Positions 24,843-54,735 of a stretch of DNA of 64,000 bases are shown piece by piece. This DNA is from Tequatrovirus BCH953P2, in sequence record OZ035785.1; one strand, 5' to 3'. The position numbers and the translations under genes are program-made. Below the pieces are notes generated by a model. It was not told the DNA's origin. It did no database searches and saw nothing but the letters and a program-made list of their open reading frames with translations. The stretch's first letter is position 1; the number at the start of each line of letters is the position of its first letter.

Positions 24843-25517
24843 TTATACATCTTCTTTTCTGAATAAGTAAATTAAATTCTTAAGAGCTGAACTTGTTACA
24901 TCATATTTTCCTTTAAGCGCCTTTACAACCGGGCCTGTTGCTGGTTTACCTAAAGAAACCCATAACTCATGTATTTCGCTTTTAAGCGGTTCATGCCAAT
25001 GCGGCGCTTTTCTTTGCGCCCTTGAAGTTCCTTCTGAAATCTTTTTATTTCCGCCATTCGAATAAAACTTTTTCATTACTTCAGATTGCCGAGCTTTTCG
25101 TTCTGCTCTATTTTGGGCTATACGTTGTGAATTCTTCATCCGAGTTTTTGTTTCAGGATTGTTTAATCTAAGTTTATGTTCTAATCGTTGTTGCTCAGTC
25201 CATTTTCTTCCTTCTCCACCCTGACCACCAGGAGAAATATTAATGCAAGTATCTGGGTGTTTACGTTTTAATGCAGATATTAGCTCGCGTTCAACTTCAT
25301 ATGATTTTTCTCTAGAACCATGGCATTTTGACCAACGTATTTTATAATTAAAACCATACTTACGATATATGTTCCATAGTATTTTGCCTGACCCCGGATA
25401 TTTATCATCATATGGATTTACAATAAATGATTCATGTTTCCCAGCGTACCAAAAGACGCCTTTCGGCGTCCTAACTTTTACGATATATGTTCTATAAAAT
25501 TTTTGTTTAATACCCAT
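24843..25517 (-). CDS. segF: SegF-like GIY-YIG homing endonuclease
   Basis: 224 aa from MGIKQKFYRTYIV...WYAGKH (GIY...YIG-like); position between soc and 56 as T4 segF; overlaps gene 56 end. Confidence 0.6.
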   Translation of the reverse strand: MGIKQKFYRTYIVKVRTPKGVFWYAGKHESFIVNPYDDKYPGSGKILWNIYRKYGFNYKIRWSKCHGSREKSYEVERELISALKRKHPDTCINISPGGQGGEGRKWTEQQRLEHKLRLNNPETKTRMKNSQRIAQNRAERKARQSEVMKKFYSNGGNKKISEGTSRAQRKAPHWHEPLKSEIHELWVSLGKPATGPVVKALKGKYDVTSSALKNLIYLFRKEDV

Positions 25518-26022
25518 TATCTTGACGTTCAAAATTATGTTTATTTTTCAAATAATAAAGTTTAAAGATTTCTTCCGCATTCATTCCAAGGCCAGCAAAC
25601 ATATTTAATACGAAATGAAATATATCCACAAGCTCAAATTTAATTTCGAGCTGATCTTCTGGGGACATTTCATCAATGCGTTTTTCTTGCGCTTCAATAT
25701 AACGTGCTTTCCATTTTTTCCAAACTGCCGATGCATCTTTTTCACCACGTGACATTTCACCAAGAGAAGTCAGAAGTTCGCGGAATTCATCATCAATACA
25801 GTCTTTTTGTTCACGCATCCAAGAAACAACATCACCGGCAGTTTCTAATTTATCTGGATGATAACAGTATTCGCGGTCATTTGCTAAACGAATCTGCAGA
25901 GACTTCTGCATGTCAAGCATTACCTGCAGCGGGTCTTTTTCATCACCGAGAATATCCCAGTATTCATTTTGAGCTTTATCAGCGCCTTCGATCAGTTGAC
26001 TACATTCGTTGAAATATGCCAT
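25507..26022 (-). CDS. 56: gp56 dCTPase/dUTPase (dCTP pyrophosphatase)
   Basis: 171 aa from MAYFNECSQ... (T4 gp56 is 171 aa); MazG-like. Confidence 0.8.
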   Translation of the reverse strand: MAYFNECSQLIEGADKAQNEYWDILGDEKDPLQVMLDMQKSLQIRLANDREYCYHPDKLETAGDVVSWMREQKDCIDDEFRELLTSLGEMSRGEKDASAVWKKWKARYIEAQEKRIDEMSPEDQLEIKFELVDIFHFVLNMFAGLGMNAEEIFKLYYLKNKHNFERQDNGY

Positions 26023-32195: not shown

Positions 32196-32558
32196 TTAAA
32201 AGAATTTAAATTTTTTCTTTGACCTTTTATTAAATGCATCTTGCAGTTGCATTGTAATACATTTTTCTACATGAGGAGCTAACTCAGCTTTTCTTTCTTG
32301 GTCAAGAACAGCAAAGTCCATTACAACCTTTCCATCAACCCAATCTAATTTTGTCACATACACAATGTGTGTAGAACCATCTTCTAGTTTAATGACAATC
32401 TCCTGGATAACATTTTCCATAGCAGATTTAATTATCTTAAGAGACTCATTAAAAAGACGTTCTTTTCTTTCTTCTTCCCCCTCCGAAGAGGGGGATTCAT
32501 CGATAATTTCTAGATCTAAATCTAAATCATCTTTATTCATTAAATTCTTCCATATCAC
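32196..32558 (-). CDS. 40: gp40 head vertex assembly chaperone
   Basis: 120 aa, acidic; position between uvsX and 41. Confidence 0.65.
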   Translation of the reverse strand: MIWKNLMNKDDLDLDLEIIDESPSSEGEEERKERLFNESLKIIKSAMENVIQEIVIKLEDGSTHIVYVTKLDWVDGKVVMDFAVLDQERKAELAPHVEKCITMQLQDAFNKRSKKKFKFF

Positions 32559-33714
32559 TTAACTGTTCGAGGTCAGTTTCTAAATCAGCAGCTGATTTAC
32601 TTTTACTTTCTGGGGATTTAAATTTTTCAACTTTTGAGTTAATCAATTCATCAACTTCCGCTTCAACAATTTCATTACTATCAATAGCACCTAACTGATA
32701 AGCACGTTTAATAGCATCTCGGAATGGTTGATGCTTAAATAAAGGACCCCAGAATGTAGTGCAGTTGGTATCTTTTGCACGCCAAGATTTTTCTTCGCGA
32801 ATCATCTCACCGGTTTCTTCATCAAGAAATTCACGGGCATACCAGCCATTTTTAGGTTTTACTACAAATCCTAATTCTAGTGCCATATCTAACAATCCAG
32901 AATAAGGATCGATACCACCGTCAAATTTAACATCAATAAAGAATTTACTTTTTTCTTTAACGGTACGAGATTTTTCTACATTTAGAACAAATTGATACCC
33001 CTGAAGATCAGAACCATCTTTAATTTGACGTTTACCGATAATGAATACAGTATCAGCCGAATACATTACGCCTGTACCGCCTGTCATCACGGTTTTACTA
33101 AACATTTCAATTGTTTCAATTGTATGGTTAACCGCAACGCACGGAATATTTTTAATGCTAAAATAAGGAGTAACAATACGGAATAATGACTTCAGTGATT
33201 TAGCACGAGTCATATCTGCCACAGATTTTTCATTCAAGGCATCTTCCGTTTCTTTCTTAGAAGCCATATTACCGATTGAGTCGATGAATACAATAACCTT
33301 TTCACCACGCTCAATAGCTTCAAGCTGATTCACCATATCAATTTTCAGTTGTTCAACTGACTGGATTGGTGTATGAATTACTCGTTCCGGGTCAACTCCC
33401 ATAGATCGCAAATAAGCTGGAGTGATACCAAATTCGCTATCATAGAATAGACAAACCGCGTCAGGATATTTGTTCAAATATGCCGCAACCATAGTCAAAG
33501 ACATATTTGATTTAAAGTGTTTAGAAGGCCCTGCGAAAATAGTTAAACCAGACTGCATGCCGCCATCAATCGCACCAGAAATAGCAATATTAAGCATTGG
33601 GATTTTTGTACGGATTACATCCTTTTCATTAAAGAATTTAGATGTAGTCAGTTCAGCAGTCATTTTAGAAGTGGAAGCTTTAATCAAACGGGATTTTAAA
33701 TCTGCAATAGACAT
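32533..33714 (-). CDS. uvsX: UvsX recombinase (RecA-like)
   Basis: 393 aa; MSIADLKSRLIKASTSKMTAELTTSKFFNEKD... matches recollection of T4 UvsX; Walker A GPSKHFKS. Confidence 0.9.
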   Translation of the reverse strand: MSIADLKSRLIKASTSKMTAELTTSKFFNEKDVIRTKIPMLNIAISGAIDGGMQSGLTIFAGPSKHFKSNMSLTMVAAYLNKYPDAVCLFYDSEFGITPAYLRSMGVDPERVIHTPIQSVEQLKIDMVNQLEAIERGEKVIVFIDSIGNMASKKETEDALNEKSVADMTRAKSLKSLFRIVTPYFSIKNIPCVAVNHTIETIEMFSKTVMTGGTGVMYSADTVFIIGKRQIKDGSDLQGYQFVLNVEKSRTVKEKSKFFIDVKFDGGIDPYSGLLDMALELGFVVKPKNGWYAREFLDEETGEMIREEKSWRAKDTNCTTFWGPLFKHQPFRDAIKRAYQLGAIDSNEIVEAEVDELINSKVEKFKSPESKSKSAADLETDLEQLSDMEEFNE

Positions 33715-33791: not shown

Positions 33792-34634
33792 TTAATCAAC
33801 TGCTATTGGATGAATAGCATTAAACTTATGAAATGCTTCTGATTTTTCTTTACGCGAAACACACATGCGAAGAACCTTTAACGGCTCGTCTTCTTCACCC
33901 AACGATTTTCGTTTTTCAATATTAGAAGTTTTCCAACGAGCTTGCTCTGGAAACTCTCTATTGATTTGTTCAAGCGCTCTATTATGTTTAGAATTACTGC
34001 GAATTGAACTGCACCCGCCAGGAGCTTGTGCTTTTCCAGATACAACCAGATATTTGAACAAGGCCAAATGCGGATAACCTTGATTAATTAAATTGAGAAA
34101 TGCATACATATCTTCGCATAAATCAATTTTTCCATACCCAATTTGTTCTGTGGTAAGTTTTCCGAGGTCATACCATGTATTCGTGAATCCGTATGAATTT
34201 TCACGATAATTACCCCAAGATGAAGTAATTTTAAAAATTGGTAGACGAGCATGACCGTGATAATACCCGCAATCCATGGCATCTTCAACGTATTGAATCA
34301 ATTCATAGAACTGTTCACGAGTTAATTGATTAATTTTATCTACACATCGGCGATCATCTCTTTTTCGCATTGAACTCATACGAATAGTAGTATCATCGTC
34401 AATCATCCAGATTCGTTGACCTGCATACATATCAGTAATTGCTTTACGAGTACCGGCAATTCCATTTACATCATCAGGAATAGTTACAATTTTAGCTCTA
34501 GACCCATAGGCATCATAATAAGCTTTTTCTTCGTGTTCACGCACTACAATATGTGGTTCATAATCAGTCGGAAACATATCAAGGGCAGAAACTGCCCCTA
34601 CACGTTGATAGCTTGGAATTACGAATTGAATCAT
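33792..34634 (-). CDS. Putative DNA-modifying glycosyltransferase (GT-A-like, DXD motif), replacing T4 beta-gt
   Basis: 280 aa with RIWMIDDD; T4 beta-gt is 351 aa, so this is a different enzyme, possibly the T2/T6-type beta-glucosyl-alpha-glucose transferase (inference). Confidence 0.55.
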   Translation of the reverse strand: MIQFVIPSYQRVGAVSALDMFPTDYEPHIVVREHEEKAYYDAYGSRAKIVTIPDDVNGIAGTRKAITDMYAGQRIWMIDDDTTIRMSSMRKRDDRRCVDKINQLTREQFYELIQYVEDAMDCGYYHGHARLPIFKITSSWGNYRENSYGFTNTWYDLGKLTTEQIGYGKIDLCEDMYAFLNLINQGYPHLALFKYLVVSGKAQAPGGCSSIRSNSKHNRALEQINREFPEQARWKTSNIEKRKSLGEEDEPLKVLRMCVSRKEKSEAFHKFNAIHPIAVD

Positions 34635-35271
34635 TTAAGTGCCTTACATTTGTCAAAATGGTATCTTGTCATATTTGGCCCACGTCCTTTTAGTCCGCAA
34701 TGCGGACATATTTTTTCTATCAAATTATGAGGTTTTCCTTTACGATTTTTAGACATCGTTTCTTTAATTATTTTAGCTTTTTCTGCGCCAAAAATTTCTT
34801 CATAAGTTTTACCAGAATTTTCCTTTGCTCGATTTATAATTCCATATGCCTGCTCATTTTTACCATACATTGGATTACCTTCGCCTTTCATTCTTTTAGA
34901 ATGATCAGGACGCTTGATTCCACGAAAGGCATTTCCGCACTTATATCTTTCTTCTGGAGATAGTTTTTACCGTACATTCCATTTAATTTGCCTGGAAAAC
35001 TTCCTCCCCATGCTTCATTCTTTAAATTATATGAATCCGGACAATTAGCAGCATCTAAACAAGTTAAAATAATTTCTTCAACCTGTCTAAACATTGGTCC
35101 TTCATATAATATTTCTTTATTAAAGGATTTTATTCCATATTTCTTTTTAGCATGTTGCCAAACTACACCCGAACCATCATAATTCGGGTTGTGACCATCA
35201 TGACTTCCTATATACCACTTTTTAGTTTTAGGATGTTTATACTTATAAACATGTGGCACATTTACTTCCAT
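34631..35271 (-). pseudogene. GIY-YIG homing endonuclease gene split by a 1-nt frameshift
   Basis: N-terminal ORF 34888..35271 has YKYKHPKTKKWYIGS; C-terminal frame open 34631..34966 has repeated G-x-x-x-GK-x-H motifs and a CPHCG zinc finger; frames join if the T5 run at 34964-34968 gains one base. Confidence 0.65.
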
Positions 35272-36002
35272 TTTCCAGTATAATCCTTTTTAGCAATATG
35301 AGTCTCACCGGTGTTCCACCAATGGTCAACTAAATAAAACTGATTTTCGTACACATGAAGACTTCCAACGTTCCATATAATAGAACCTGCTTTATATTGC
35401 CGCGATGGGTCGCCTGCATTCAAATCAGATACTAATTTATCTAGTACGTATTTTTGCCAAGCATAATCATTACGATAGCCTGCCCAGCAATCATTGCTTC
35501 TCATGCTAACAACCGCATTGACTTTCTTATCACGAATCAGGTACTGTACTGTATTAGTACACATGAAATCTGACATACCATCTTTATTGTAGTCAAATTG
35601 CATGGATGGACGAGTATAAATCATGATACCACGTCGAGAATCAGGATTTTGACCAAGTTCAGCTAAACACATGTCATATTGAGCATAGTTATCTTCTGAC
35701 CAGATAGCCCAACCATAATTCGAGTTAATTTCGCCTTTAGAAGATGCTACCTGCTGCCAAATCTTTGGTGTTTCACCTGGAATATCTTTAACAAACAAGC
35801 TCTTAGATTTATACCATTCAAGTTCGCGCTGAATGTATTCATCATTAAGAGCGCCAAAAATAAACGGTTCATCTGCTACAAATGATGCGCCAATAATTTC
35901 AATAGTTTTAACACCGGTTTTATCAACTACGAAATCTTTTTCTTTTAATGCAAGCCCCAAATGAAGACGGATTTCTTCAACTGTCATAGAGTCACTAATC
36001 AT
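35262..36002 (-). CDS. 42: gp42 dCMP hydroxymethylase
   Basis: 246 aa (T4 gp42 is 246 aa); thymidylate-synthase-like fold. Confidence 0.9.
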   Translation of the reverse strand: MISDSMTVEEIRLHLGLALKEKDFVVDKTGVKTIEIIGASFVADEPFIFGALNDEYIQRELEWYKSKSLFVKDIPGETPKIWQQVASSKGEINSNYGWAIWSEDNYAQYDMCLAELGQNPDSRRGIMIYTRPSMQFDYNKDGMSDFMCTNTVQYLIRDKKVNAVVSMRSNDCWAGYRNDYAWQKYVLDKLVSDLNAGDPSRQYKAGSIIWNVGSLHVYENQFYLVDHWWNTGETHIAKKDYTGKWK

Positions 36003-37225: not shown

Positions 37226-39922
37226 TCAGCCAAACAGGAAGTCTAACGAAGCTTTTTCTTCATAGTCCATGCCAGCCGATTCACACATACCCGCAAGCGG
37301 TTTAACAAACGATTTTTGGAACAAAGTTGAGTGGTCAATCCAAGATAGTACATCAGAACGAATTTCTTTTGGAAGTTCTGTACCCGACGGCCAAGCAATG
37401 CACTTGTCACCAAATGGATTTCCTTCACGTAATGGAAGAACCATTACTTTATTTCCATCCAAAATTGGAGCTACACCCAGACCACTAACAGCTCGACGAT
37501 AAGTTAGCACACCGCGAATATGGAACGGGCATTTAAATCCTGGCCAACCTTTATCATCATATTTCGCTATATCGTTCGCAGTTTTTACTTCAGCAATAAC
37601 TTTATAGTCGAGTTGACGATATTCTTTCTCGAAGTTCTTGTAATATTCTTGGACAGACTCTTCACCTTCCTGAAGAATACGACGAATACTTTCTTCGAGA
37701 GCTTCTTGTACTGCTTTTGGTGTTGAACTCTGCTGAGTTTCCATACCCATGATTTTTAGATGTGGTTCAGCAAATCGCTTATCTTCCATATCATAAACGT
37801 TCAGAGCATAACGCTTTTTCGCTTTCCAAAATCCACCAACACCCTTTGAACCAAGTGGAGGGCAAGAAATAGCTTCACGGTCCATATGCATCAGATGCTC
37901 GCGGTTATTCATATAATCACATAACTCACGATATGCAACATCAATCATAGGTTCCATCTTTTTCTTACCGAACTGATTCATGAATTCAACTAAATCGTTC
38001 TGCTCTTTGAATCGGTCAAGACCAACTTTTTCAATAACTTTATCTACACAAACATATACCGAATCAGTATCACCCGCGGCAATGAAATCTTCACCATCAG
38101 TTCCACATACTTTATTTAGATATTCATTAATTTTACGAGCAATCCACTGAATACCAACTTGGCCGAAAATTGTGATAGCAGTAGCATTTCGCAAATCATA
38201 GTAACGGAAATGAATATTACCAAGAGCACCATAAAGACTGTTAATAAGAATTTTACGGTTCAGCTGATTTGTGTTAGCAAGTGTAGCTGCTTTTTCACAT
38301 TCCTCAATCAGACTATTGAGAACGGATTCGGTGTAATTCGATAGTTCATTTAAGAAATCATCACTGAACTTAACATATCGTTCAACTTCTGGTTTAGTTG
38401 AACAAGACCCTGCGCCTTTCATAATAATCTTTTTAATAGCTTCGGCATTCATTTCTTCAGCGAACATTTTCTTTTTCCAGTCTTTACGCTGGAAAAATAC
38501 TTTAGCGATTTCCTTTGGAATGATACCTTCTTGATGCTTATCATACATCCATCCATTCGGAGAACAAGAATATTCATCACTCGGTTTAGGAGCTGTTCCT
38601 GCAATATATTCATGAATTGGATGAACTTTAAACTGCCCACGAATAGTCTCAGGACTAATGTTAACCTGACGAATAATGCTCGGATACAGAGACGTCAAGT
38701 CAAAACTCATAATATATCGACGAGCAATTGGTTTAGGTTCAAACACAAATGCACCCGGAAAACTCTGTTTAACGTGCGAACCCTGTTGAGGAATAACCTT
38801 ATGTTCACCTTTCAATGAGTTAAAAATAATAGCATCCCAAGTTTTAATAGGACTCATTACACCAGAAAAAGGCATTTTAGCATAATAAGACATACTTAAA
38901 ACTAGATCGATAAACCCGCGAATTTTATCAATTGCTTGAACTGATTCTACGTCAATGATGTTATAACTAATGTATCGTTGATGATTAGTCTCACGAAGTT
39001 TATTAATAGGACCGTCGTATGGTAATTTACCTTTTTTGGTTTCATGTTGAGCAACTGATTCCAAAGAGAATGACGGCAAATTAGTAAATGCGAATTTCTT
39101 ATACAAATCTAAATAATCAAGAATAGATACGCCATCAATAGAATAAATTTCTTTGCTACCGTACACATTTTGAATTAGTTTAGATTTTACTCGACCGATT
39201 GGAGAGAAACGTTTCATACTGCGTTCACCGAGAACCATTTTAACGCGATTCATGATATACGGAACGTCAAATCCCTCAATATTCCAACCAGTAAAAATAG
39301 CAGGTCGTTTCTGTTCCCAAAGATTGATATATTCCATGAGCATATCACGCTCATTATCGAATGGCATATAAATTACTCGGTCAAGAATTTCTTGAGGAAC
39401 TTCATCACCACCTTCACAGTCAAGCTTAGCAGCTAACTTTGCATCCCATTTTGATACTGAACCGTACATTGAATTCAAAAGGTCGAAAACATAAAAACGG
39501 TCATCAATTGAATCGTAATGAGTGATAGCATCAATTTCATATTCAGCTTTCATTGGGTCAGGAAATTTATCACCAGTAACCTCAATGTCACAGTTAGCTA
39601 CACGAACAAATTTTCGGTCATAAACAATTTCTGAACCATATGTATCACTAATGTAAGCGAGTTTAAAATCGTTCATACCGAGAGCTTCGAGACCGATGTC
39701 TTCCATTCGCTTCATCCAGTCTCGTGCATCTTTCATTGATGGAAATTTTTGAGGAGCGCAATTTTTACCATAAATGTCTTTGTACTTTGACTCTTCCTTA
39801 CAATGCCTAAACATAGTCGGAAGATATTCTACTTCACGAGTACGTTCCTTTCCGTTTTCATCAATATAACGTTCAACAATGTTATTTCCGACTGTTTCGA
39901 TAGAGATATAAAATTCTTTCAT
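37226..39922 (-). CDS. 43: gp43 DNA polymerase (family B)
   Basis: 898 aa (T4 gp43 is 898 aa); exonuclease and polymerase motifs including DTDS. Confidence 0.95.
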   Translation of the reverse strand: MKEFYISIETVGNNIVERYIDENGKERTREVEYLPTMFRHCKEESKYKDIYGKNCAPQKFPSMKDARDWMKRMEDIGLEALGMNDFKLAYISDTYGSEIVYDRKFVRVANCDIEVTGDKFPDPMKAEYEIDAITHYDSIDDRFYVFDLLNSMYGSVSKWDAKLAAKLDCEGGDEVPQEILDRVIYMPFDNERDMLMEYINLWEQKRPAIFTGWNIEGFDVPYIMNRVKMVLGERSMKRFSPIGRVKSKLIQNVYGSKEIYSIDGVSILDYLDLYKKFAFTNLPSFSLESVAQHETKKGKLPYDGPINKLRETNHQRYISYNIIDVESVQAIDKIRGFIDLVLSMSYYAKMPFSGVMSPIKTWDAIIFNSLKGEHKVIPQQGSHVKQSFPGAFVFEPKPIARRYIMSFDLTSLYPSIIRQVNISPETIRGQFKVHPIHEYIAGTAPKPSDEYSCSPNGWMYDKHQEGIIPKEIAKVFFQRKDWKKKMFAEEMNAEAIKKIIMKGAGSCSTKPEVERYVKFSDDFLNELSNYTESVLNSLIEECEKAATLANTNQLNRKILINSLYGALGNIHFRYYDLRNATAITIFGQVGIQWIARKINEYLNKVCGTDGEDFIAAGDTDSVYVCVDKVIEKVGLDRFKEQNDLVEFMNQFGKKKMEPMIDVAYRELCDYMNNREHLMHMDREAISCPPLGSKGVGGFWKAKKRYALNVYDMEDKRFAEPHLKIMGMETQQSSTPKAVQEALEESIRRILQEGEESVQEYYKNFEKEYRQLDYKVIAEVKTANDIAKYDDKGWPGFKCPFHIRGVLTYRRAVSGLGVAPILDGNKVMVLPLREGNPFGDKCIAWPSGTELPKEIRSDVLSWIDHSTLFQKSFVKPLAGMCESAGMDYEEKASLDFLFG

Positions 39923-43087: not shown

Positions 43088-43276
43088 TTAGTCATAATAA
43101 TCAGTAACAGTCCAAGCTTCATTTCTATTGGACATTATTTTTGTATATTCTGCTTTAAATGCATTCCTAAGCATAGATTCAGTAACTATATGCTCTTCAT
43201 TAGAAAAATTATTTCTCAGAATATATCGTTTTATTTCAGGAATAGTTAATAGATGTTGTCCAGTTGAATATTCCAT
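43088..43276 (-). CDS. Hypothetical protein (62 aa); position of T4 45.2
   Basis: Minus-strand ORF. Confidence 0.55.
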   Translation of the reverse strand: MEYSTGQHLLTIPEIKRYILRNNFSNEEHIVTESMLRNAFKAEYTKIMSNRNEAWTVTDYYD

Positions 43277-43331
43277 GTTTTTCCTCCACAGAGATTATAC
43301 TCTAATAAATTAAAGCATAATCTCTTATAAA

Positions 43332-45014
43332 TTAAACCATTACAGTAAATCGACCAACTTTCTTCATTTGAAGATGCTGACCATATGCTTGCGGGTCATG
43401 GTCTCTATGTGAAATAACAAAAACATTAGTATTTTTTAAACTATCTAAAATAGTTGAAATAGCTTTTACACCTTCAACGTCGGTCGCTGAATCAAAAACT
43501 TCATCAAGAATTAGTGTGTTTATTTTAACACCTGAAACTTTTTCAGCAATATCACGCCAAGTAAATAAAAGAGCAATATCAATTCGTGCTTTTTCACCTT
43601 GACTGAATGAAGCATAACTAAAATCTTCGCGACCACGGGATTTAATTGTCTCATTAAATTCTTCATCTAATGTAAACACATAATCCGCTTCCATTATTTT
43701 AAGATAATGGTTAATCTGCTTATTAAATAATGGAATGTACTTTTTAATAATAGCACCTTTAATACCAGAATCTTTGAGCATATCAGTCAAAATTCCTCGG
43801 TGGTATTTTTCCATTACTAAATTAGTTTTTGTCTTAACAATTTTATCAAGTTCTTCTTGAAGCAGTGCTATTTCATCAGCATGGTCAATAAACTCAGAAG
43901 ATGCTTTTTCTATAGCTGCTTTAACTTTTTTGGCTTTATCTACCGTCGTGATTAGAGATTGCTTTTTATTGCGAATATCATTTGCCAACGACTGTTGGGT
44001 TTTAATATTATCTCGGTATTCATCAACAAGAACTTTTAAATTATCACGATGTGTTGAAAGCTGTTCAAACGAATGCGTACATTCAGAAACTTTATCTTTA
44101 ATTTTAGAAACAACTTTATCACCGGAACTCAATTGTGACAAACAGGTTGGACATAATCCACCTTCGTGATACATATTAATGACTTTATTATACGAGTCAA
44201 TTTTTGATTTAATTAAAAATGCTTCTTGACCGATTTTATTAAATGCATCAGTCGGGTCTTCATCTAAAACAATATTAACTAATCTTTCATTAGCTTCTTC
44301 TATTTCCGATTTTAGCGTTCTAGCTTCTTTTGCCAAATCATCATACATATTTTGTAGACGAGTAAGGTTGTCACCCGTTAATTTTTTCTGGCGTTCAACG
44401 TTATCATTATATATTTTAATTTGTTGGATAATACTATCTTTTTTAACATCAAGCACTTGGTTTTGTGAATTTAATTCACGTATTAGTGCTTTATTAAGCT
44501 TATCCATTTCAGCTAGTGTTCCTACCTCAAGCAGGTCTTCCACAAGCTTTCTTCGTGCAGGGGTCGACAAACCCATGAAAGGGGTATACCCTGCTGTACC
44601 AAGGACAACAATCTGCTTGAAACTGGCATATGACATTCCGATAAGCTGTTCAAATTCTGCTTGGAAATCTTTACTGCTGGCAGATTCATTAAGACGTGTA
44701 CCGTTAACGGTGATTTCGAAAACGTTCGGTTTTTGTCCTCTTTTGATATAGTACTTTTTCTCATCATATTCCATCCACAGTTCAACTAAAAGTTCTTTCT
44801 TATTTGTGCTGTTTATTAATTGACCTTTCTTTACATCACGAAATGGCTTACCAAAAAGCCCAAATGTGATGGCTTCTAGCATAGTAGACTTACCACCGCC
44901 ATTTCGTCCAGTAATAAGAGTTTTTTGAACCTTATCTAATTGAATGTCAACTCCATTTTGACCAACTGACATTATATTTTTATATTTTACTCTATTAAGT
45001 TTAAAATTCTTCAC
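43332..45014 (-). CDS. 46: gp46 recombination nuclease ATPase subunit (Rad50/SbcC-like)
   Basis: 560 aa (T4 gp46 is 560 aa); Walker A GRNGGGKST, coiled-coil middle, zinc hook CPTC. Confidence 0.9.
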   Translation of the reverse strand: MKNFKLNRVKYKNIMSVGQNGVDIQLDKVQKTLITGRNGGGKSTMLEAITFGLFGKPFRDVKKGQLINSTNKKELLVELWMEYDEKKYYIKRGQKPNVFEITVNGTRLNESASSKDFQAEFEQLIGMSYASFKQIVVLGTAGYTPFMGLSTPARRKLVEDLLEVGTLAEMDKLNKALIRELNSQNQVLDVKKDSIIQQIKIYNDNVERQKKLTGDNLTRLQNMYDDLAKEARTLKSEIEEANERLVNIVLDEDPTDAFNKIGQEAFLIKSKIDSYNKVINMYHEGGLCPTCLSQLSSGDKVVSKIKDKVSECTHSFEQLSTHRDNLKVLVDEYRDNIKTQQSLANDIRNKKQSLITTVDKAKKVKAAIEKASSEFIDHADEIALLQEELDKIVKTKTNLVMEKYHRGILTDMLKDSGIKGAIIKKYIPLFNKQINHYLKIMEADYVFTLDEEFNETIKSRGREDFSYASFSQGEKARIDIALLFTWRDIAEKVSGVKINTLILDEVFDSATDVEGVKAISTILDSLKNTNVFVISHRDHDPQAYGQHLQMKKVGRFTVMV

Positions 45015-52109: not shown

Positions 52110-53923
52110 TGATGCTTAACCCTATGCATGATTTCTTTATTTTTACCGAGATTAAATCCGCGTTCGTTCGGGTTTCCAAGATATCCGCATGTTCTTCTTA
52201 TTGTGTTCATCTTTTTAGGATCAGTTTCTCCACAAATAGAACAAACAAATCCGTTTTCAGTAGGAGTCATTTCATGGGTACTTCCGCATGTAAAACATTT
52301 ATCTACTGGCATGTTAACACCAAAATAATCTAAATGTTGTGCAGCATAATCCCATACGGCCTCAAGACCTTTTAAGTTATTTTTCATATCAGGAAGTTCA
52401 ACATAAGAAATGTGACCACCTGTCGCAATGAAATGATACGGCGCTTCACGAGAAATCTTTTCAAACGGAGTAATATTTTCTTCTACTGAAACGTGGAAAC
52501 TGTTAGTGTACCAGCCTTTATCGGTAACATCTTTTACGCTTCCATATTTTTCTGTATCGAGTTTACAGAAGCGATAACAAAGGTTTTCAGCAGGAGTAGA
52601 ATATAAACTAAAAGCAAATCCGGTTCTTTCAGTCCACTGTTTAAGATGAGCATTCATTTTAGTTAAAATTTCTCGTCCAATATCACGACCGACAAGAATA
52701 TTCAATTCGTGAATACCAATGTATCCTAGGGACACTGAACTTCTACCGTTTTTAAATAACTCAATTATGTCGTCATCAGGTTTAAGACGAACCCCGAATG
52801 CACCTTCTTGGTAAAGAATAGGAGCAACAGTAGCTTTAACTCCTTTTAAGGAACTAATTCTACACATCAAAGCTTCAAAACACAAATCCATTCGTTCATT
52901 GAATAATTCAACAAATTTCTGTTCATTGAACTGTGTTCCAATATAAGAATCTAACGCGATGCGAGGAAGATTCAATGTTACAACACCAAGATTATTACGT
53001 CCATCAAGAATTTCATTACCAGTCGAATCTTTCCATACGCTCAAGAAACTACGGCAACCCATTGGAGAAACAGGAACAGATGAACCAGTGATAGCTTTAT
53101 TGTTCTTAGCTGAAATAATATCAGGATACATCCTTTTGCTTGCACACTCTAGAGCAAGCTGCTTAATATCATAGTTCGGATCGTCTTTGTAAAGATTAAC
53201 GCCTTCTTCGACGAACATAACAAGCTTAGGGAAAATAGGAGTTATCCCATCACGACCAAGACCTTTAATACGATTTTTCAGAATTGCTTTCTGAATCATT
53301 CGTTCAGTCCAGTCAGTTCCCGTACCAAATGTAATTGTTACAAAAGGTGTTTGCCCGTTTGAACTAAAGAGAGTATTTACTTCATATTCATAAGCTTGGA
53401 ATGCATCGTATACGTCTTTTTCTGTTTTAGATTGAGCATAATTCAACGCATCAGCGATTTGCCATTTTTCTGCATCTTCAATATGTTTTGCATAGGTGCG
53501 TTTAACATAAGGAGAAAGTACTTTATCTACATTCGCAAAAGTCGTTCCGCCATATTGATGGGAAGCAACCTGTGCAGTAATTTGTGCCATAATTGCAGTA
53601 GCAACACCGATTGATTTAGGAGTTTCAATCTGTGCATTACCGAGCTTAAATCCGTTCTCAAGCATTCCTTTTAAATCTACTAAACAACAATTAGTAAAAG
53701 GCAATGATATACTGTAATCTAAATCATGAAAATGAATTAACCCGGCATTATGAGCATTTACAATATGACTTGGAAGAATACTGCAAGCGATATGTTTAGA
53801 AACAATACCGGCCATTAAATCTCTTTTTGTTGGAAAGACACGAGAATCTTTGTTGGCGTTTTCGGTATTTAATTCTTTATCTTTATTTGAAATAAAATTT
53901 AAAACATCTTTCTCTAAAGACAT
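52106..53923 (-). CDS. nrdD: NrdD anaerobic ribonucleoside-triphosphate reductase, uninterrupted
   Basis: 605 aa in one frame; C-terminal glycyl-radical motif RRTCGYLG and Cys zinc site CFTCGS...CSIC. Confidence 0.9.
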   Translation of the reverse strand: MSLEKDVLNFISNKDKELNTENANKDSRVFPTKRDLMAGIVSKHIACSILPSHIVNAHNAGLIHFHDLDYSISLPFTNCCLVDLKGMLENGFKLGNAQIETPKSIGVATAIMAQITAQVASHQYGGTTFANVDKVLSPYVKRTYAKHIEDAEKWQIADALNYAQSKTEKDVYDAFQAYEYEVNTLFSSNGQTPFVTITFGTGTDWTERMIQKAILKNRIKGLGRDGITPIFPKLVMFVEEGVNLYKDDPNYDIKQLALECASKRMYPDIISAKNNKAITGSSVPVSPMGCRSFLSVWKDSTGNEILDGRNNLGVVTLNLPRIALDSYIGTQFNEQKFVELFNERMDLCFEALMCRISSLKGVKATVAPILYQEGAFGVRLKPDDDIIELFKNGRSSVSLGYIGIHELNILVGRDIGREILTKMNAHLKQWTERTGFAFSLYSTPAENLCYRFCKLDTEKYGSVKDVTDKGWYTNSFHVSVEENITPFEKISREAPYHFIATGGHISYVELPDMKNNLKGLEAVWDYAAQHLDYFGVNMPVDKCFTCGSTHEMTPTENGFVCSICGETDPKKMNTIRRTCGYLGNPNERGFNLGKNKEIMHRVKHQ

Positions 53924-54735
53924 AATTCTAATTTATCCTTTTGAAATTCTTCGTCTAAATATGGGTTCCAACCCATTTTAAACCTTTTGATGAAATTATC
54001 AATTCTAAATTTCGGTAAGTTTAAATCCGCAAAAATAGATGATTTACTTTTAAAATCTGGACCTAAATAATCATATAAAATTTCTGCGTATTTTAACCAT
54101 AATATATAAGTACCAGATTTAATTGCTCTCGGAGTTTTCCAAGGTTTTACACCATACATCGGATTTCCACTTCCTTTATGCCTGATAGAAGATGAAATTC
54201 CAATTTTAATTTTAGCTTCCTCTGTATGCGAAAATCCATGATGTGGATTTTCTTTCCAATATTTTTTAGAAGCTTCTGATATTTTCTTTCTGGCTAAATT
54301 AGTATGATGCTTTCCATAAAATCCATGATTTTTACCTTTATTACGATTTCTTTTAATCATGGTTATTGATTGCTTTTTTCTAGTTTCTTTAGAAGGAGAA
54401 ACACCGTACGTTGTAAATTGACCATCAGCATATGCTAAATTAAAATACTCTTTATTCCATATATCTTTTTCTATATTCTTTTGAAATTCAGCTTCAATGC
54501 TAGTTATTTGCTCATCTCCGACTAATTGAAAATATAATATTTCAACTTTCGGCGTTTCTTTCAACAGGGCTTTTTGAAATTCGGAAGATGACGAAGACGA
54601 ATAATAAAATTTACCATTTTTATCAATAATATTCGTTCCGTCAAAAGCGCAATTAGTTTTACTTCCAATGTAATAATATGGCGGGGTTTTAGCATTAATT
54701 CTATTAATAAATGATAGTTTATATACTACATTCAT
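53914..54735 (-). CDS. Free-standing GIY-YIG-type homing endonuclease
   Basis: 273 aa; VYKLSFINRINAKTPPYYYIGS then repeated GK-x-H DNA-binding motifs (GKNHGFYGKHH, GSGNPMYG); overlaps nrdD stop by 10 nt. Confidence 0.6.
   Translation of the reverse strand: MNVVYKLSFINRINAKTPPYYYIGSKTNCAFDGTNIIDKNGKFYYSSSSSSEFQKALLKETPKVEILYFQLVGDEQITSIEAEFQKNIEKDIWNKEYFNLAYADGQFTTYGVSPSKETRKKQSITMIKRNRNKGKNHGFYGKHHTNLARKKISEASKKYWKENPHHGFSHTEEAKIKIGISSSIRHKGSGNPMYGVKPWKTPRAIKSGTYILWLKYAEILYDYLGPDFKSKSSIFADLNLPKFRIDNFIKRFKMGWNPYLDEEFQKDKLELCL

Follow-up and report, generated by a model that had tools for sequence, protein, structure and literature searches.

Two adjacent reading frames lie between gene 42 and the glucosyltransferase gene in the 64,000-nucleotide stretch of Tequatrovirus BCH953P2 analyzed here (sequence record OZ035785.1; the window). 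A reading made from the sequence alone had taken them for one GIY-YIG homing endonuclease gene, split by a single base, and had offered three explanations: a homopolymer sequencing error, a recently inactivated mobile endonuclease, or a gene that depends on slippage for its expression. The locus thus raises the question of whether such a gene has really been broken here and, if so, how and with what effect. The best reading, and probably the right one, is a recent and genuine replication-slippage deletion, shortening a run of six A's (A6) to five (A5), in a dispensable selfish gene.

The disrupted gene and its surroundings

All coordinates of the proposed gene were confirmed, and insertion of one base at 34964-34968 restores a single open reading frame (ORF) of 213 amino acids. 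The gene and its parts are as follows.

34631..35271, minus strand: gene for a Seg-like GIY-YIG homing endonuclease, disrupted and 641 nt long in this phage; the intact gene has 642 nt and encodes 213 aa
34888..35271, minus strand: ORF1, 127 aa, comprising native residues 1-102 (the entire GIY-YIG catalytic domain) and 25 out-of-frame residues
34631..34966, minus strand: second reading frame, downstream of the break and covering native residues 103-213; it has NUMOD3-like motifs in the linker, a helical part and, at the C terminus, a zinc finger
34631..34891, minus strand: ORF2, 86 aa, with native Met128 as its first residue (MKGEGNPMYGK...)
34964..34968, minus strand: A5 run (TTTTT on the plus strand), where the 1-nt deletion lies; nearly all relatives have A6 here, and PYps5T has A7

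ORF1 has the N-terminus MEVNVPHVYKYKHPKTKKWYIGSHDG. The downstream frame is open from 34966 to a TGA at 34631-34633, with the translation KLSPEERYKCGNAFRGIKRPDHSKRMKGEGNPMYGK...CPHCGLKGRGPNMTRYHFDKCKALK. The TGA of ORF1 overlaps the ATG of ORF2 in an ATGA at 34888-34891, and the same two ORFs are annotated in phage REP2. The break, after residue 102, leaves the catalytic domain of the protein on one side and its DNA-binding half on the other. Several phage genomes have an intact annotated protein to which the repaired ORF is 100% identical, so the split frame is not a product of chance. The 127-aa and 86-aa ORFs are better annotated as one disrupted homing endonuclease gene than as a “homing endonuclease” followed by a “hypothetical protein.”

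In this T2/T6-like phage, the genes on either side both serve DNA modification, and comparison with genomes that have an empty site defines its boundaries closely.

34635..35265, minus strand: cassette inserted at the site that is empty in T2 and EO1, from comparison of the junctions; 631 nt here, 632 nt when intact
35262..35271, minus strand: 10 nt shared by the start of the endonuclease gene and the end of gene 42, ATGGAAGTAA
34631..34634, minus strand: ATGA overlap of the endonuclease stop with the beta-alpha-glucosyltransferase start
33792..34634, minus strand: beta-glucosyl-HMC-alpha-glucosyltransferase (beta-alpha-glucosyltransferase) gene, the downstream neighbor

The cassette is flanked by ...TGGAA and ATGATTCAATT..., with boundaries that can slide by about 2 nt, and the span at the locus is 1570 nt in empty-site records compared to 2202 nt with the cassette. 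An ATGA identical to the one at the downstream end joins gene 42 directly to the transferase gene in T2. Counts of promoters and terminators in the region did not rise above the shuffled expectation, giving no sign of any internal to the element. The endonuclease gene is a promoter-less cassette at the junction of gene 42 and the beta-alpha-glucosyltransferase gene. The suggestion that T4 lacks a gene at this position is correct: 23 nt separate its genes 42 and beta-gt, and segA flanks beta-gt on the opposite side.

Relationship to Seg-type GIY-YIG endonucleases

The evidence supports the assignment of the gene product, proposed from the letters of the sequence as of Seg/I-TevI type, to the free-standing Seg-type GIY-YIG homing endonucleases. 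The repaired protein matches PHROG 314, “homing endonuclease,” with an E value of 1.8e-31; ORF1 alone matches the same family (E value of 3.9e-20), and the downstream frame matches a second “homing endonuclease” family, PHROG 655. In Pfam searches with the repaired protein, NUMOD3 scored below threshold at residues 125-138 (18.1 bits against a Pfam cutoff of 20.4 bits; E value of 0.0026), and the Pfam GIY-YIG models PF01541 and PF19835 gave no match at an E value of ≤1 on the repaired protein or on either ORF. Membership was therefore established through homologues, profile, and fold. Among 36 homologues, 7 match GIY-YIG PF01541 (best E value of 4.6e-12), 12 match SegE_GIY-YIG PF19835, and 23 carry NUMOD3 at an E value of ≤0.01. 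When the family profile was compared with solved structures, the best match was the I-TevI catalytic domain (1MK0/1LN0; E value of 0.004).

Two regions of the protein carry the conserved residues of the family.

35002..35253, minus strand: GIY-YIG catalytic domain, residues ~7-90, with HVY (7-9), YIG (20-22), Y-x-GSG (31-35), E65/E66 and N82
34646..34708, minus strand: CCHC zinc-finger-like motif CPHC-x12-H-x3-C, formed by C189, C192, H205 and C209 in the numbering of the repaired protein

HVY and YIG correspond to the GIY and YIG of the class, which lie about 10-11 residues apart near the N-terminus; conservation of Y9, Y20, and G22 is at least 90% among 36-41 homologues. N82, in the segment SYNLKN, is invariant in the family alignment and is aligned with N90 of I-TevI, and E65/E66 are the family consensus (EE), lying 1-2 residues from the metal-binding Glu of I-TevI (E75) in the HMM alignment. 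The segment of I-TevI that contains R27, the conserved catalytic Arg that follows YIG, is opposite a 9-residue gap of the family profile alignment; residues 23-61 here include no Arg, and R62, a consensus residue of the family, is not positionally equivalent to I-TevI R27 by sequence. A zinc finger in the C-terminal half had been part of the original proposal, and its four Cys and His residues are indeed at least 90% conserved across the family.

An AlphaFold (AF2) model was built on P0001, an intact relative that is 99% identical to the repaired protein. The model (pLDDT of 90.7) predicts strands at residues 7-12, 19-24, and 51-57 together with helices, and its top three PDB matches in Foldseek are all the I-TevI catalytic domain (1MK0/1LN0), with a probability of 1.00, a TM score of 0.63, and an rmsd of 2.8 Å. 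The modeled N-terminal domain thus shows the GIY-YIG alpha/beta fold. Residues 186-212, around the CCHC motif, are predicted to form a small beta-hairpin and a helix. The sole output of a single-protein phmmer search against the PDB, an ABC-transporter match with an E value of 0.54, was dismissed as spurious. We also set aside P0028 (139 aa, from a 724-nt contig) as a chimeric or miscalled ORF; its first 30 residues are unlike the endonuclease, and its precomputed Pfam assignment is PF01715.

The closest T4 homologue is SegC, with 36% identity over the GIY-YIG domain and the first NUMOD3 motif (E value of 2e-13) and with the Y-x-GSG and KKYGI motifs in common. Like the gene described here, segC is free-standing and promoter-less and overlaps its upstream gene (PMC2988022). 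The two differ in location, since segC lies at the 5.1/5.3 locus. T4 gene 5.3 (MCGANNPRYGK...; Pfam I-TevI_DNA-bd, E value of 3.7e-6) has a NUMOD3-like start, as does ORF2, but SegC/5.3 ends in a C-terminal I-TevI-type helix-turn-helix where the present protein has the CCHC zinc finger. I-TevI itself, encoded in the td intron, shares the order of catalytic domain, linker with NUMOD3-type and zinc elements, and DNA-binding end. It differs in being intron encoded, its identity to the present protein is ~19-20%, and here the zinc finger is C-terminal and no helix-turn-helix was detected. SegA, SegE, SegF, and SegG (targets uvsX, uvsW, 56, and 32, respectively; PMC2988022) resemble the present case in that each sits beside a conserved essential gene; the flank of the gene described here shows a linked tract. 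The endonuclease here is, however, orthologous to none of the T4 seg genes, SegA, SegB, and SegD to SegG included, and its site is empty in T4. Some GenBank records name the gene segD or segE. In the literature that we searched, we found no experimental characterization of this family and no experiments describing an endonuclease between gene 42 and the glucosyltransferase gene, where there are only generic GenBank annotations.

Distribution among relatives and the gene 42 tract

The gene is carried by 77 of ~480 related phage records and is missing from T2 and T4; ~390 Tequatroviruses with the beta-alpha-glucosyltransferase gene have the empty site, shorter by 632 nt. Orthologues occupy the same gene 42 3' junction in T4-like phages of Klebsiella and Yersinia, where the downstream genes differ. 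Presence of the endonuclease shows no linkage with the beta-alpha-glucosyltransferase gene. Its other flank does show one.

35262..35611, minus strand: 3' ~350 nt of gene 42 (dCMP hydroxymethylase), the tract linked to the endonuclease gene

Carrier phages differ from one another at 0-5 positions in the last 350 nt of gene 42, and they differ from T2 at 59 (83.7% identity), whereas the 5' 390 nt of the gene is 97.9% identical to that of T2. This comparison of the tract took two empty-site genomes base by base. A patchy distribution, exact boundaries, a junction shared across genera, and the linked gene 42 tract are all signatures of a mobile element.

The linked stretch is consistent with co-conversion, judging from the sequence comparison, and the 3' tract of gene 42 is a candidate location of the polymorphisms that determine cleavage or immunity. 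In the history that we propose, an intact 632-nt cassette would be read from the upstream transcript and translationally coupled to both of its neighbors. During a mixed infection, the endonuclease would presumably cut alleles that lack its gene, either within the 3' end of gene 42 or close to it, and repair from the carrier genome would copy the cassette along with several hundred bases of gene 42.

Origin and consequences of the missing base

The state of the homopolymer in relatives bears most directly on the nature of the break. At least 67 of the 71 phage records that carry the stretch have A6 and an intact 642-nt ORF, as do one IMG/VR contig and two metagenome contigs; A5 was found among the 71 only in REP2/REP3. 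In an alignment with four relatives, the missing A is the sole difference between the window and the BF15 allele, and the deletion is therefore recent. A5 occurs on two haplotypes, that of the window and that of REP2, the two being distinct at 2 sites in the gene. PYps5T has A7 at this run and REP2/REP3 have A5, so it is a mutational hot spot; runs of A's are sites favored by Streisinger-type replication slippage. The only other A6 run of the gene is A7 in Shinka, and Klebsiella phage Roth04 and a Logan contig of 175 kb also have frameshifted orthologues, that of the contig being broken at an A run. The frameshifts in these other records could themselves be sequencing errors.

That the phage truly has A6 and an intact 213-aa gene, with the sequence or assembly in error at the homopolymer, is an explanation to be taken seriously, given that one base in a homopolymer is the commonest kind of base-calling error and that the remainder of the gene is identical to intact alleles. 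Comparison of the window with AV120, its best-matching record (98.0% identity over 14 kb), nevertheless makes it unlikely. Over ~62 kb, the two differ by 12 isolated indels with lengths that are not multiples of 3, of which 10 lie outside ORFs, 1 affects the final codons of an ORF, and 1 is the A5 site. As 87% of A/T runs of ≥5 lie within ORFs, this pattern has been filtered by selection rather than produced by random error, and with 10 of the 12 avoiding ORFs and no second gene body broken by a frameshifting indel, the error rate of the assembly must be very low. Of the 58 runs of ≥6 in 49.5 kb of AV120, moreover, just 2 fall in the affected gene, which is of the one type for which tolerance of a knockout would be expected. 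The independent genome REP2/REP3 has the same allele. We infer that the deletion is real and not a base-calling error.

Readings in which the split gene still functions fare less well. The two ORFs might work as two pieces, by termination-reinitiation at the ATGA that joins them, or ORF2 alone might serve as a protector or regulator of the target site. ORF2 opens at a NUMOD3-like motif and retains the entire zinc-finger module, and T4 segC (140 aa) and gene 5.3 (56 aa) look similarly split. SegC is listed as an active endonuclease (PMC2988022) with its DNA-binding domain in the separate ORF 5.3, so a split arrangement is not necessarily dead. The split at the present locus is nonetheless rare (2 records and the window, against at least 67 intact) and without sign of maintenance, and in T4 it is the reference state rather than a rare derived allele. 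The last 25 residues of ORF1 are nonsense, ORF2 is preceded by no evident Shine-Dalgarno sequence, and in other lineages the gene is broken at different places, all of which makes a working two-piece gene quite improbable. Alternatively, a -1 shift by ribosomes at the A run, or slippage there during transcription, could yield full-length enzyme at a low, regulated level. The two frames do meet at a run of A's, and low expression is common in endonucleases of this class (PMC2988022). Relatives, however, overwhelmingly carry a plain in-frame A6 gene, as do the 3 environmental contigs, so the split is derived and not conserved. The site, GGU AAA AAC (U AAA AAC in the zero frame), is not an X XXY YYZ heptamer, and the P-site codon in the -1 frame would be UAA. 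Five A's are too short a run for efficient slippage by RNA polymerase. The 93 nt downstream folds no better than shuffled sequence (MFE z score of -1.22; 22 of 200 shuffles fold as well). We rejected programmed frameshifting on these grounds, namely, an unconserved A5, no slippery heptamer, and no downstream structure; the suggestion of a slippage-dependent gene is contradicted by them and scarcely credible.

The existence of A5, A6, and A7 alleles also allows the tract to be seen as a reversible on/off switch of the endonuclease, the “off” state of which may still yield ORF2 as a DNA-binding fragment for the gene 42 target. We regard this as very improbable; if true, a selfish nuclease of a lytic phage would be regulated in the manner of a contingency locus. 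A stand-alone ORF2 fragment coupled through the ATGA would echo the segC/5.3 arrangement of T4.

Among the three explanations first offered, the recently inactivated mobile endonuclease is best supported, with relatives at A6 and BF15 a single A away. Under a slippage deletion, loss of one A during replication would have ended the catalytic domain after residue 102 and uncoupled it from the NUMOD3/zinc-finger DNA-binding half, and site-specific cleavage should therefore be lost. The A5 gene is thus probably a fresh pseudogene devoid of activity. In phages, a frameshift that separates the nuclease from the DNA-binding domain has been described as a typical signature of such genes (PMC10448857), and the one-base loss described here is ordinary decay of a homing endonuclease gene. 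None of this would surprise a specialist. The locus offers a clean view, in nature, of the life cycle of homing endonucleases in T-even phages: it takes in an uncharacterized Seg-like family that occupies the 3' junction of gene 42 in several genera of T4-like phages, together with repeated knockouts at A runs. Its intact and A5 alleles, one base apart, make a simple test system for the cost or benefit of the gene.

Comparable decay has been described in other systems. In phage ICP1, gp115-gp116 have nuclease and DNA-binding domains parted by a frameshift and were read as an inactivated gene (PMC10448857), and T4 I-TevIII is a defunct endonuclease gene persisting in a phage genome (PMC2790892). 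Both differ from the present case in being HNH or T5orf172 enzymes of other phages rather than GIY-YIG enzymes, and here the intact parent allele is still common in close relatives.

The split gene and its neighbors

The window belongs to a T2/T6-like Tequatrovirus. The deposited phage closest to it is AV120, with 98.0% identity over 14 kb, and none reaches 99%. The gene under study lies on the minus strand, in the following order.

Minus-strand genes around the split endonuclease gene
37226-39922, minus strand: gene 43, first in minus-strand order, with the imm genes next
35262-36002, minus strand: gene 42, dCMP hydroxymethylase, just before the endonuclease gene
34631-35271, minus strand: split endonuclease gene, between gene 42 and the transferase gene
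33792-34634, minus strand: beta-glucosyl-HMC-alpha-glucosyltransferase gene, after the endonuclease gene
32533-33714, minus strand: uvsX, after the transferase gene

ORF1 (34888-35271, 127 aa) starts MEVNVPHVYKYKHPKTKKWYIGSHDG, continues past ...GKLNGMYGK with 25 unrelated residues, and ends at a TGA. From 34966 down to 34631 the -1 frame stays open, with the translation KLSPEERYKCGNAFRGIKRPDHSKRMKGEGNPMYGK...CPHCGLKGRGPNMTRYHFDKCKALK. The two meet at GGT AAAAA CTA, whose five A's (allele A5, 34964-34968; a run of five T's on the plus strand) lie directly past the catalytic domain, at the first NUMOD3-like motif. One additional A gives a single ORF of 213 aa (allele A6). The ORF coordinates, the open adjacent frame, and the joining of the frames by one base, all proposed in the sequence-only reading, are confirmed; the split endonuclease gene is a genuine finding, correctly interpreted there. 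Its statement that T4 has no gene at this position also holds: only 23 nt separate 42 from beta-gt in T4, with segA beyond beta-gt.

The same reading placed the gene among Seg/I-TevI-type GIY-YIG enzymes and proposed an HMM search with GIY-YIG and NUMOD3. In Pfam, the window protein yielded just a sub-threshold NUMOD3 motif; the assignment stands instead on other comparisons. PHROG 314, "homing endonuclease," was matched by the repaired protein (E = 1.8e-31) and by ORF1 alone (E = 3.9e-20), and 69 homologues emerged from the 5.8 billion proteins searched. Conserved across their alignment are Y9, Y20, G22, Y31-G-S-G35, and N82, together with NPM-x-GK motifs and a C-terminal finger, C-P-H-C...R-Y-H-F-x-x-C. 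Scanned individually, family members matched NUMOD3 (23 of 36), SegE_GIY-YIG (12 of 36), and GIY-YIG (7 of 36) in Pfam. The only credible PDB matches to the family profile were to the I-TevI catalytic domain (1MK0/1LN0, E = 0.004), which was again the best Foldseek match (probability 1.00, target-normalized TM 0.63) to the AlphaFold model (pLDDT 90.7) of P0001, an intact homologue 99% identical to the repaired protein. The segment around I-TevI R27, a defining residue of the class, is gapped in the profile alignment, with no Arg placed as its equivalent. The nearest T4 protein is SegC (36% identity, E = 2e-13). The product is thus an uncharacterized yet recognizable Seg-type GIY-YIG homing endonuclease. 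The split gene is not a new kind of system; it allows the annotation to be usefully corrected and neatly illustrates the life cycle of homing endonucleases.

One apparent homologue, a 139-aa protein on a 724-nt ENA contig, joins 30 N-terminal residues unlike the endonuclease to its C-terminal half and has a precomputed Pfam match to PF01715. It was set aside as the probable result of contig chimerism or ORF miscalling.

Origin and consequences of the frameshift

The gene is present in 77 phage records, nearly always as a single 642-nt ORF. In a five-way alignment, phage BF15 differs from the window solely by the missing A, and REP2 shares A5 but has two other differing sites within the gene. 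A 101-nt probe is matched at 100% by just two records, REP2 and REP3, equal in length at 167,921 bp; at least 67 other records depart from it by exactly the one-base gap. Three environmental contigs, one from IMG/VR and two from metagenomes, also have A6. Because relatives and environmental contigs carry A6 and BF15 is nearly identical, the comparison indicates that the intact gene is ancestral and that the allele of the window is derived and very recent.

Of the options in the sequence-only reading, the recently inactivated mobile endonuclease is the best supported, and these sequences point to a probably genuine, recent slippage deletion. Runs of six A's are classic Streisinger slippage hot spots in T4 replication, and slippage at such a run would have produced A5, with the gene caught just after inactivation. 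A sequencing error in the run is unlikely. Over about 62 kb, the window and AV120 differ by 12 isolated indels with a length not divisible by 3: 10 outside ORFs, 1 within the final codons of one, and the endonuclease site itself. ORFs make up 89% of the window and hold 87% of its A/T runs of at least 5. Since random base-calling errors would mostly strike genes, and the pattern seen is that left after selection, both assemblies look clean. Moreover, 49.5 kb of AV120 contain 58 runs of at least 6, of which the intact endonuclease gene has just 2, and deposited genomes vary exactly at these two A runs. The first has five A's in the window and in REP2 and REP3 and seven in PYps5T; the second, normally six, has seven in Shinka. 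The Roth04 orthologue has an apparent N-terminal frameshift, and that of a 175-kb Logan contig (SRR9616336) is split into 125 and 86 aa at an A run (CCAAAATATG). The changes in PYps5T, Shinka, Roth04, and the Logan contig are further, independent frameshifts of this endonuclease family. Frameshifts are a recognized hallmark of phage homing endonuclease genes (PMC10448857).

A programmed frameshift, the slippage-dependent gene of the sequence-only reading, is contradicted. The split state is not conserved, the in-frame site is U AAA AAC, where a -1 shift would set the P-site tRNA on UAA, and the 93 nt downstream show no more folding stability than shuffled sequence (z = -1.22). Five A's are also generally too few for efficient polymerase slippage. 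That the two pieces still work together is quite improbable, although the architecture lends it something: the TGA of ORF1 overlaps the ATG of native Met128 (ATGA, 34888-34891), so reinitiation could yield a fragment of 86 aa that retains one NUMOD3-like motif together with the zinc finger. In T4 (AF158101, sequence L018), gene 5.3 (822-992, 56 aa, MCGANNPRYGK...) comes directly after segC (397-819, 140 aa) in a different frame and matches Pfam I-TevI_DNA-bd at E = 3.7e-6 (27.2 bits, curated cutoff 27). The two resemble one GIY-YIG endonuclease broken within the NUMOD3 linker, much like ORF1 and ORF2 (34631-34891) of the window, yet SegC is listed as active (PMC2988022); by analogy, a split Seg enzyme need not be dead. 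However, A5 is rare and other lineages are broken at various points, which favors decay over design, and a recent inactivating deletion remains our preferred reading.

The cassette and its link to gene 42

In T2 and phage EO1, the TGA of gene 42 overlaps the transferase ATG (…TGGAAATGATTCAATT…). The window has an insert of 631 nt (632 when intact) between TGGAA and ATGATTCAATT; its ATG lies 10 nt ahead of the new gene 42 stop, and its TGA restores the ATGA overlap with the transferase. The cassette region shows no excess of promoters or terminators, and in this and in overlapping its neighbors the element resembles the promoter-less, overlapping seg cassettes of T4 (PMC2988022). About 77 of about 480 beta-alpha-gt Tequatroviruses carry it. 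Orthologues with 65-70% identity sit at that junction, at the 3' end of gene 42, in Mexia and Roth04 (both Klebsiella phages), in Yersinia phage MHG19, with a T4-type beta-gt downstream, and in the 175-kb Logan contig, with uvsX directly next. With the junction constant and the downstream genes varied, the element therefore tracks gene 42 rather than the transferase.

The final 300-350 nt or so of gene 42 are near-invariant among carriers. Compared with T2, the gene is a mosaic, 97.9% identical over the 5' 390 nt and 83.7% over the 3' 350 nt (window 35262-35611); no comparable contrast was seen on the transferase side. The enzyme would be predicted to cleave in or near the 3' part of the gene, and the linked tract may be a co-conversion tract that also bears a target variant resistant to cleavage, a situation known for SegA, E, F, and G with their adjacent genes (PMC2988022, review table). 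In cassette-less EO1 (L012, around position 1035; window 35262-35320), gene 42 resembles that of the window except in roughly the last 50 nt before the junction, which are T2-like. Either recombination or precise cassette loss would account for this, and the phage could help to locate the boundary of cleavage or co-conversion. To the Klebsiella and Yersinia phages that carry orthologues, the window's 3' part is slightly closer (72% identity) than T2's (66-69%), a hint that it arrived together with the cassette.

Other Seg-like genes

The window has two intact Seg-like ORFs, both on the minus strand. One, of 229 aa (24843-25532; …VFWYAGKHES…YPGSGKILWNIYRKYGF…), is at the T4 segF position and adjoins an ORF that we take to be gene 56 (dCTPase); AV120 lacks this segment, with an alignment gap at window 24847-25507. 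The other, of 273 aa (53914-54735; …YYYIGSK…, GKNHGFYGKHH, GSGNPMYG), separates nrdD from gene 49 (endonuclease VII); these two genes abut in AV120, where the ORF is missing. AV120 has an annotated homing endonuclease gene of 717 nt on the opposite strand (L013, 44125-44841), immediately flanked by a small hypothetical-protein ORF and a gene annotated "recombination-related endonuclease"; the window has about 70 nt in its place (43273-43346).
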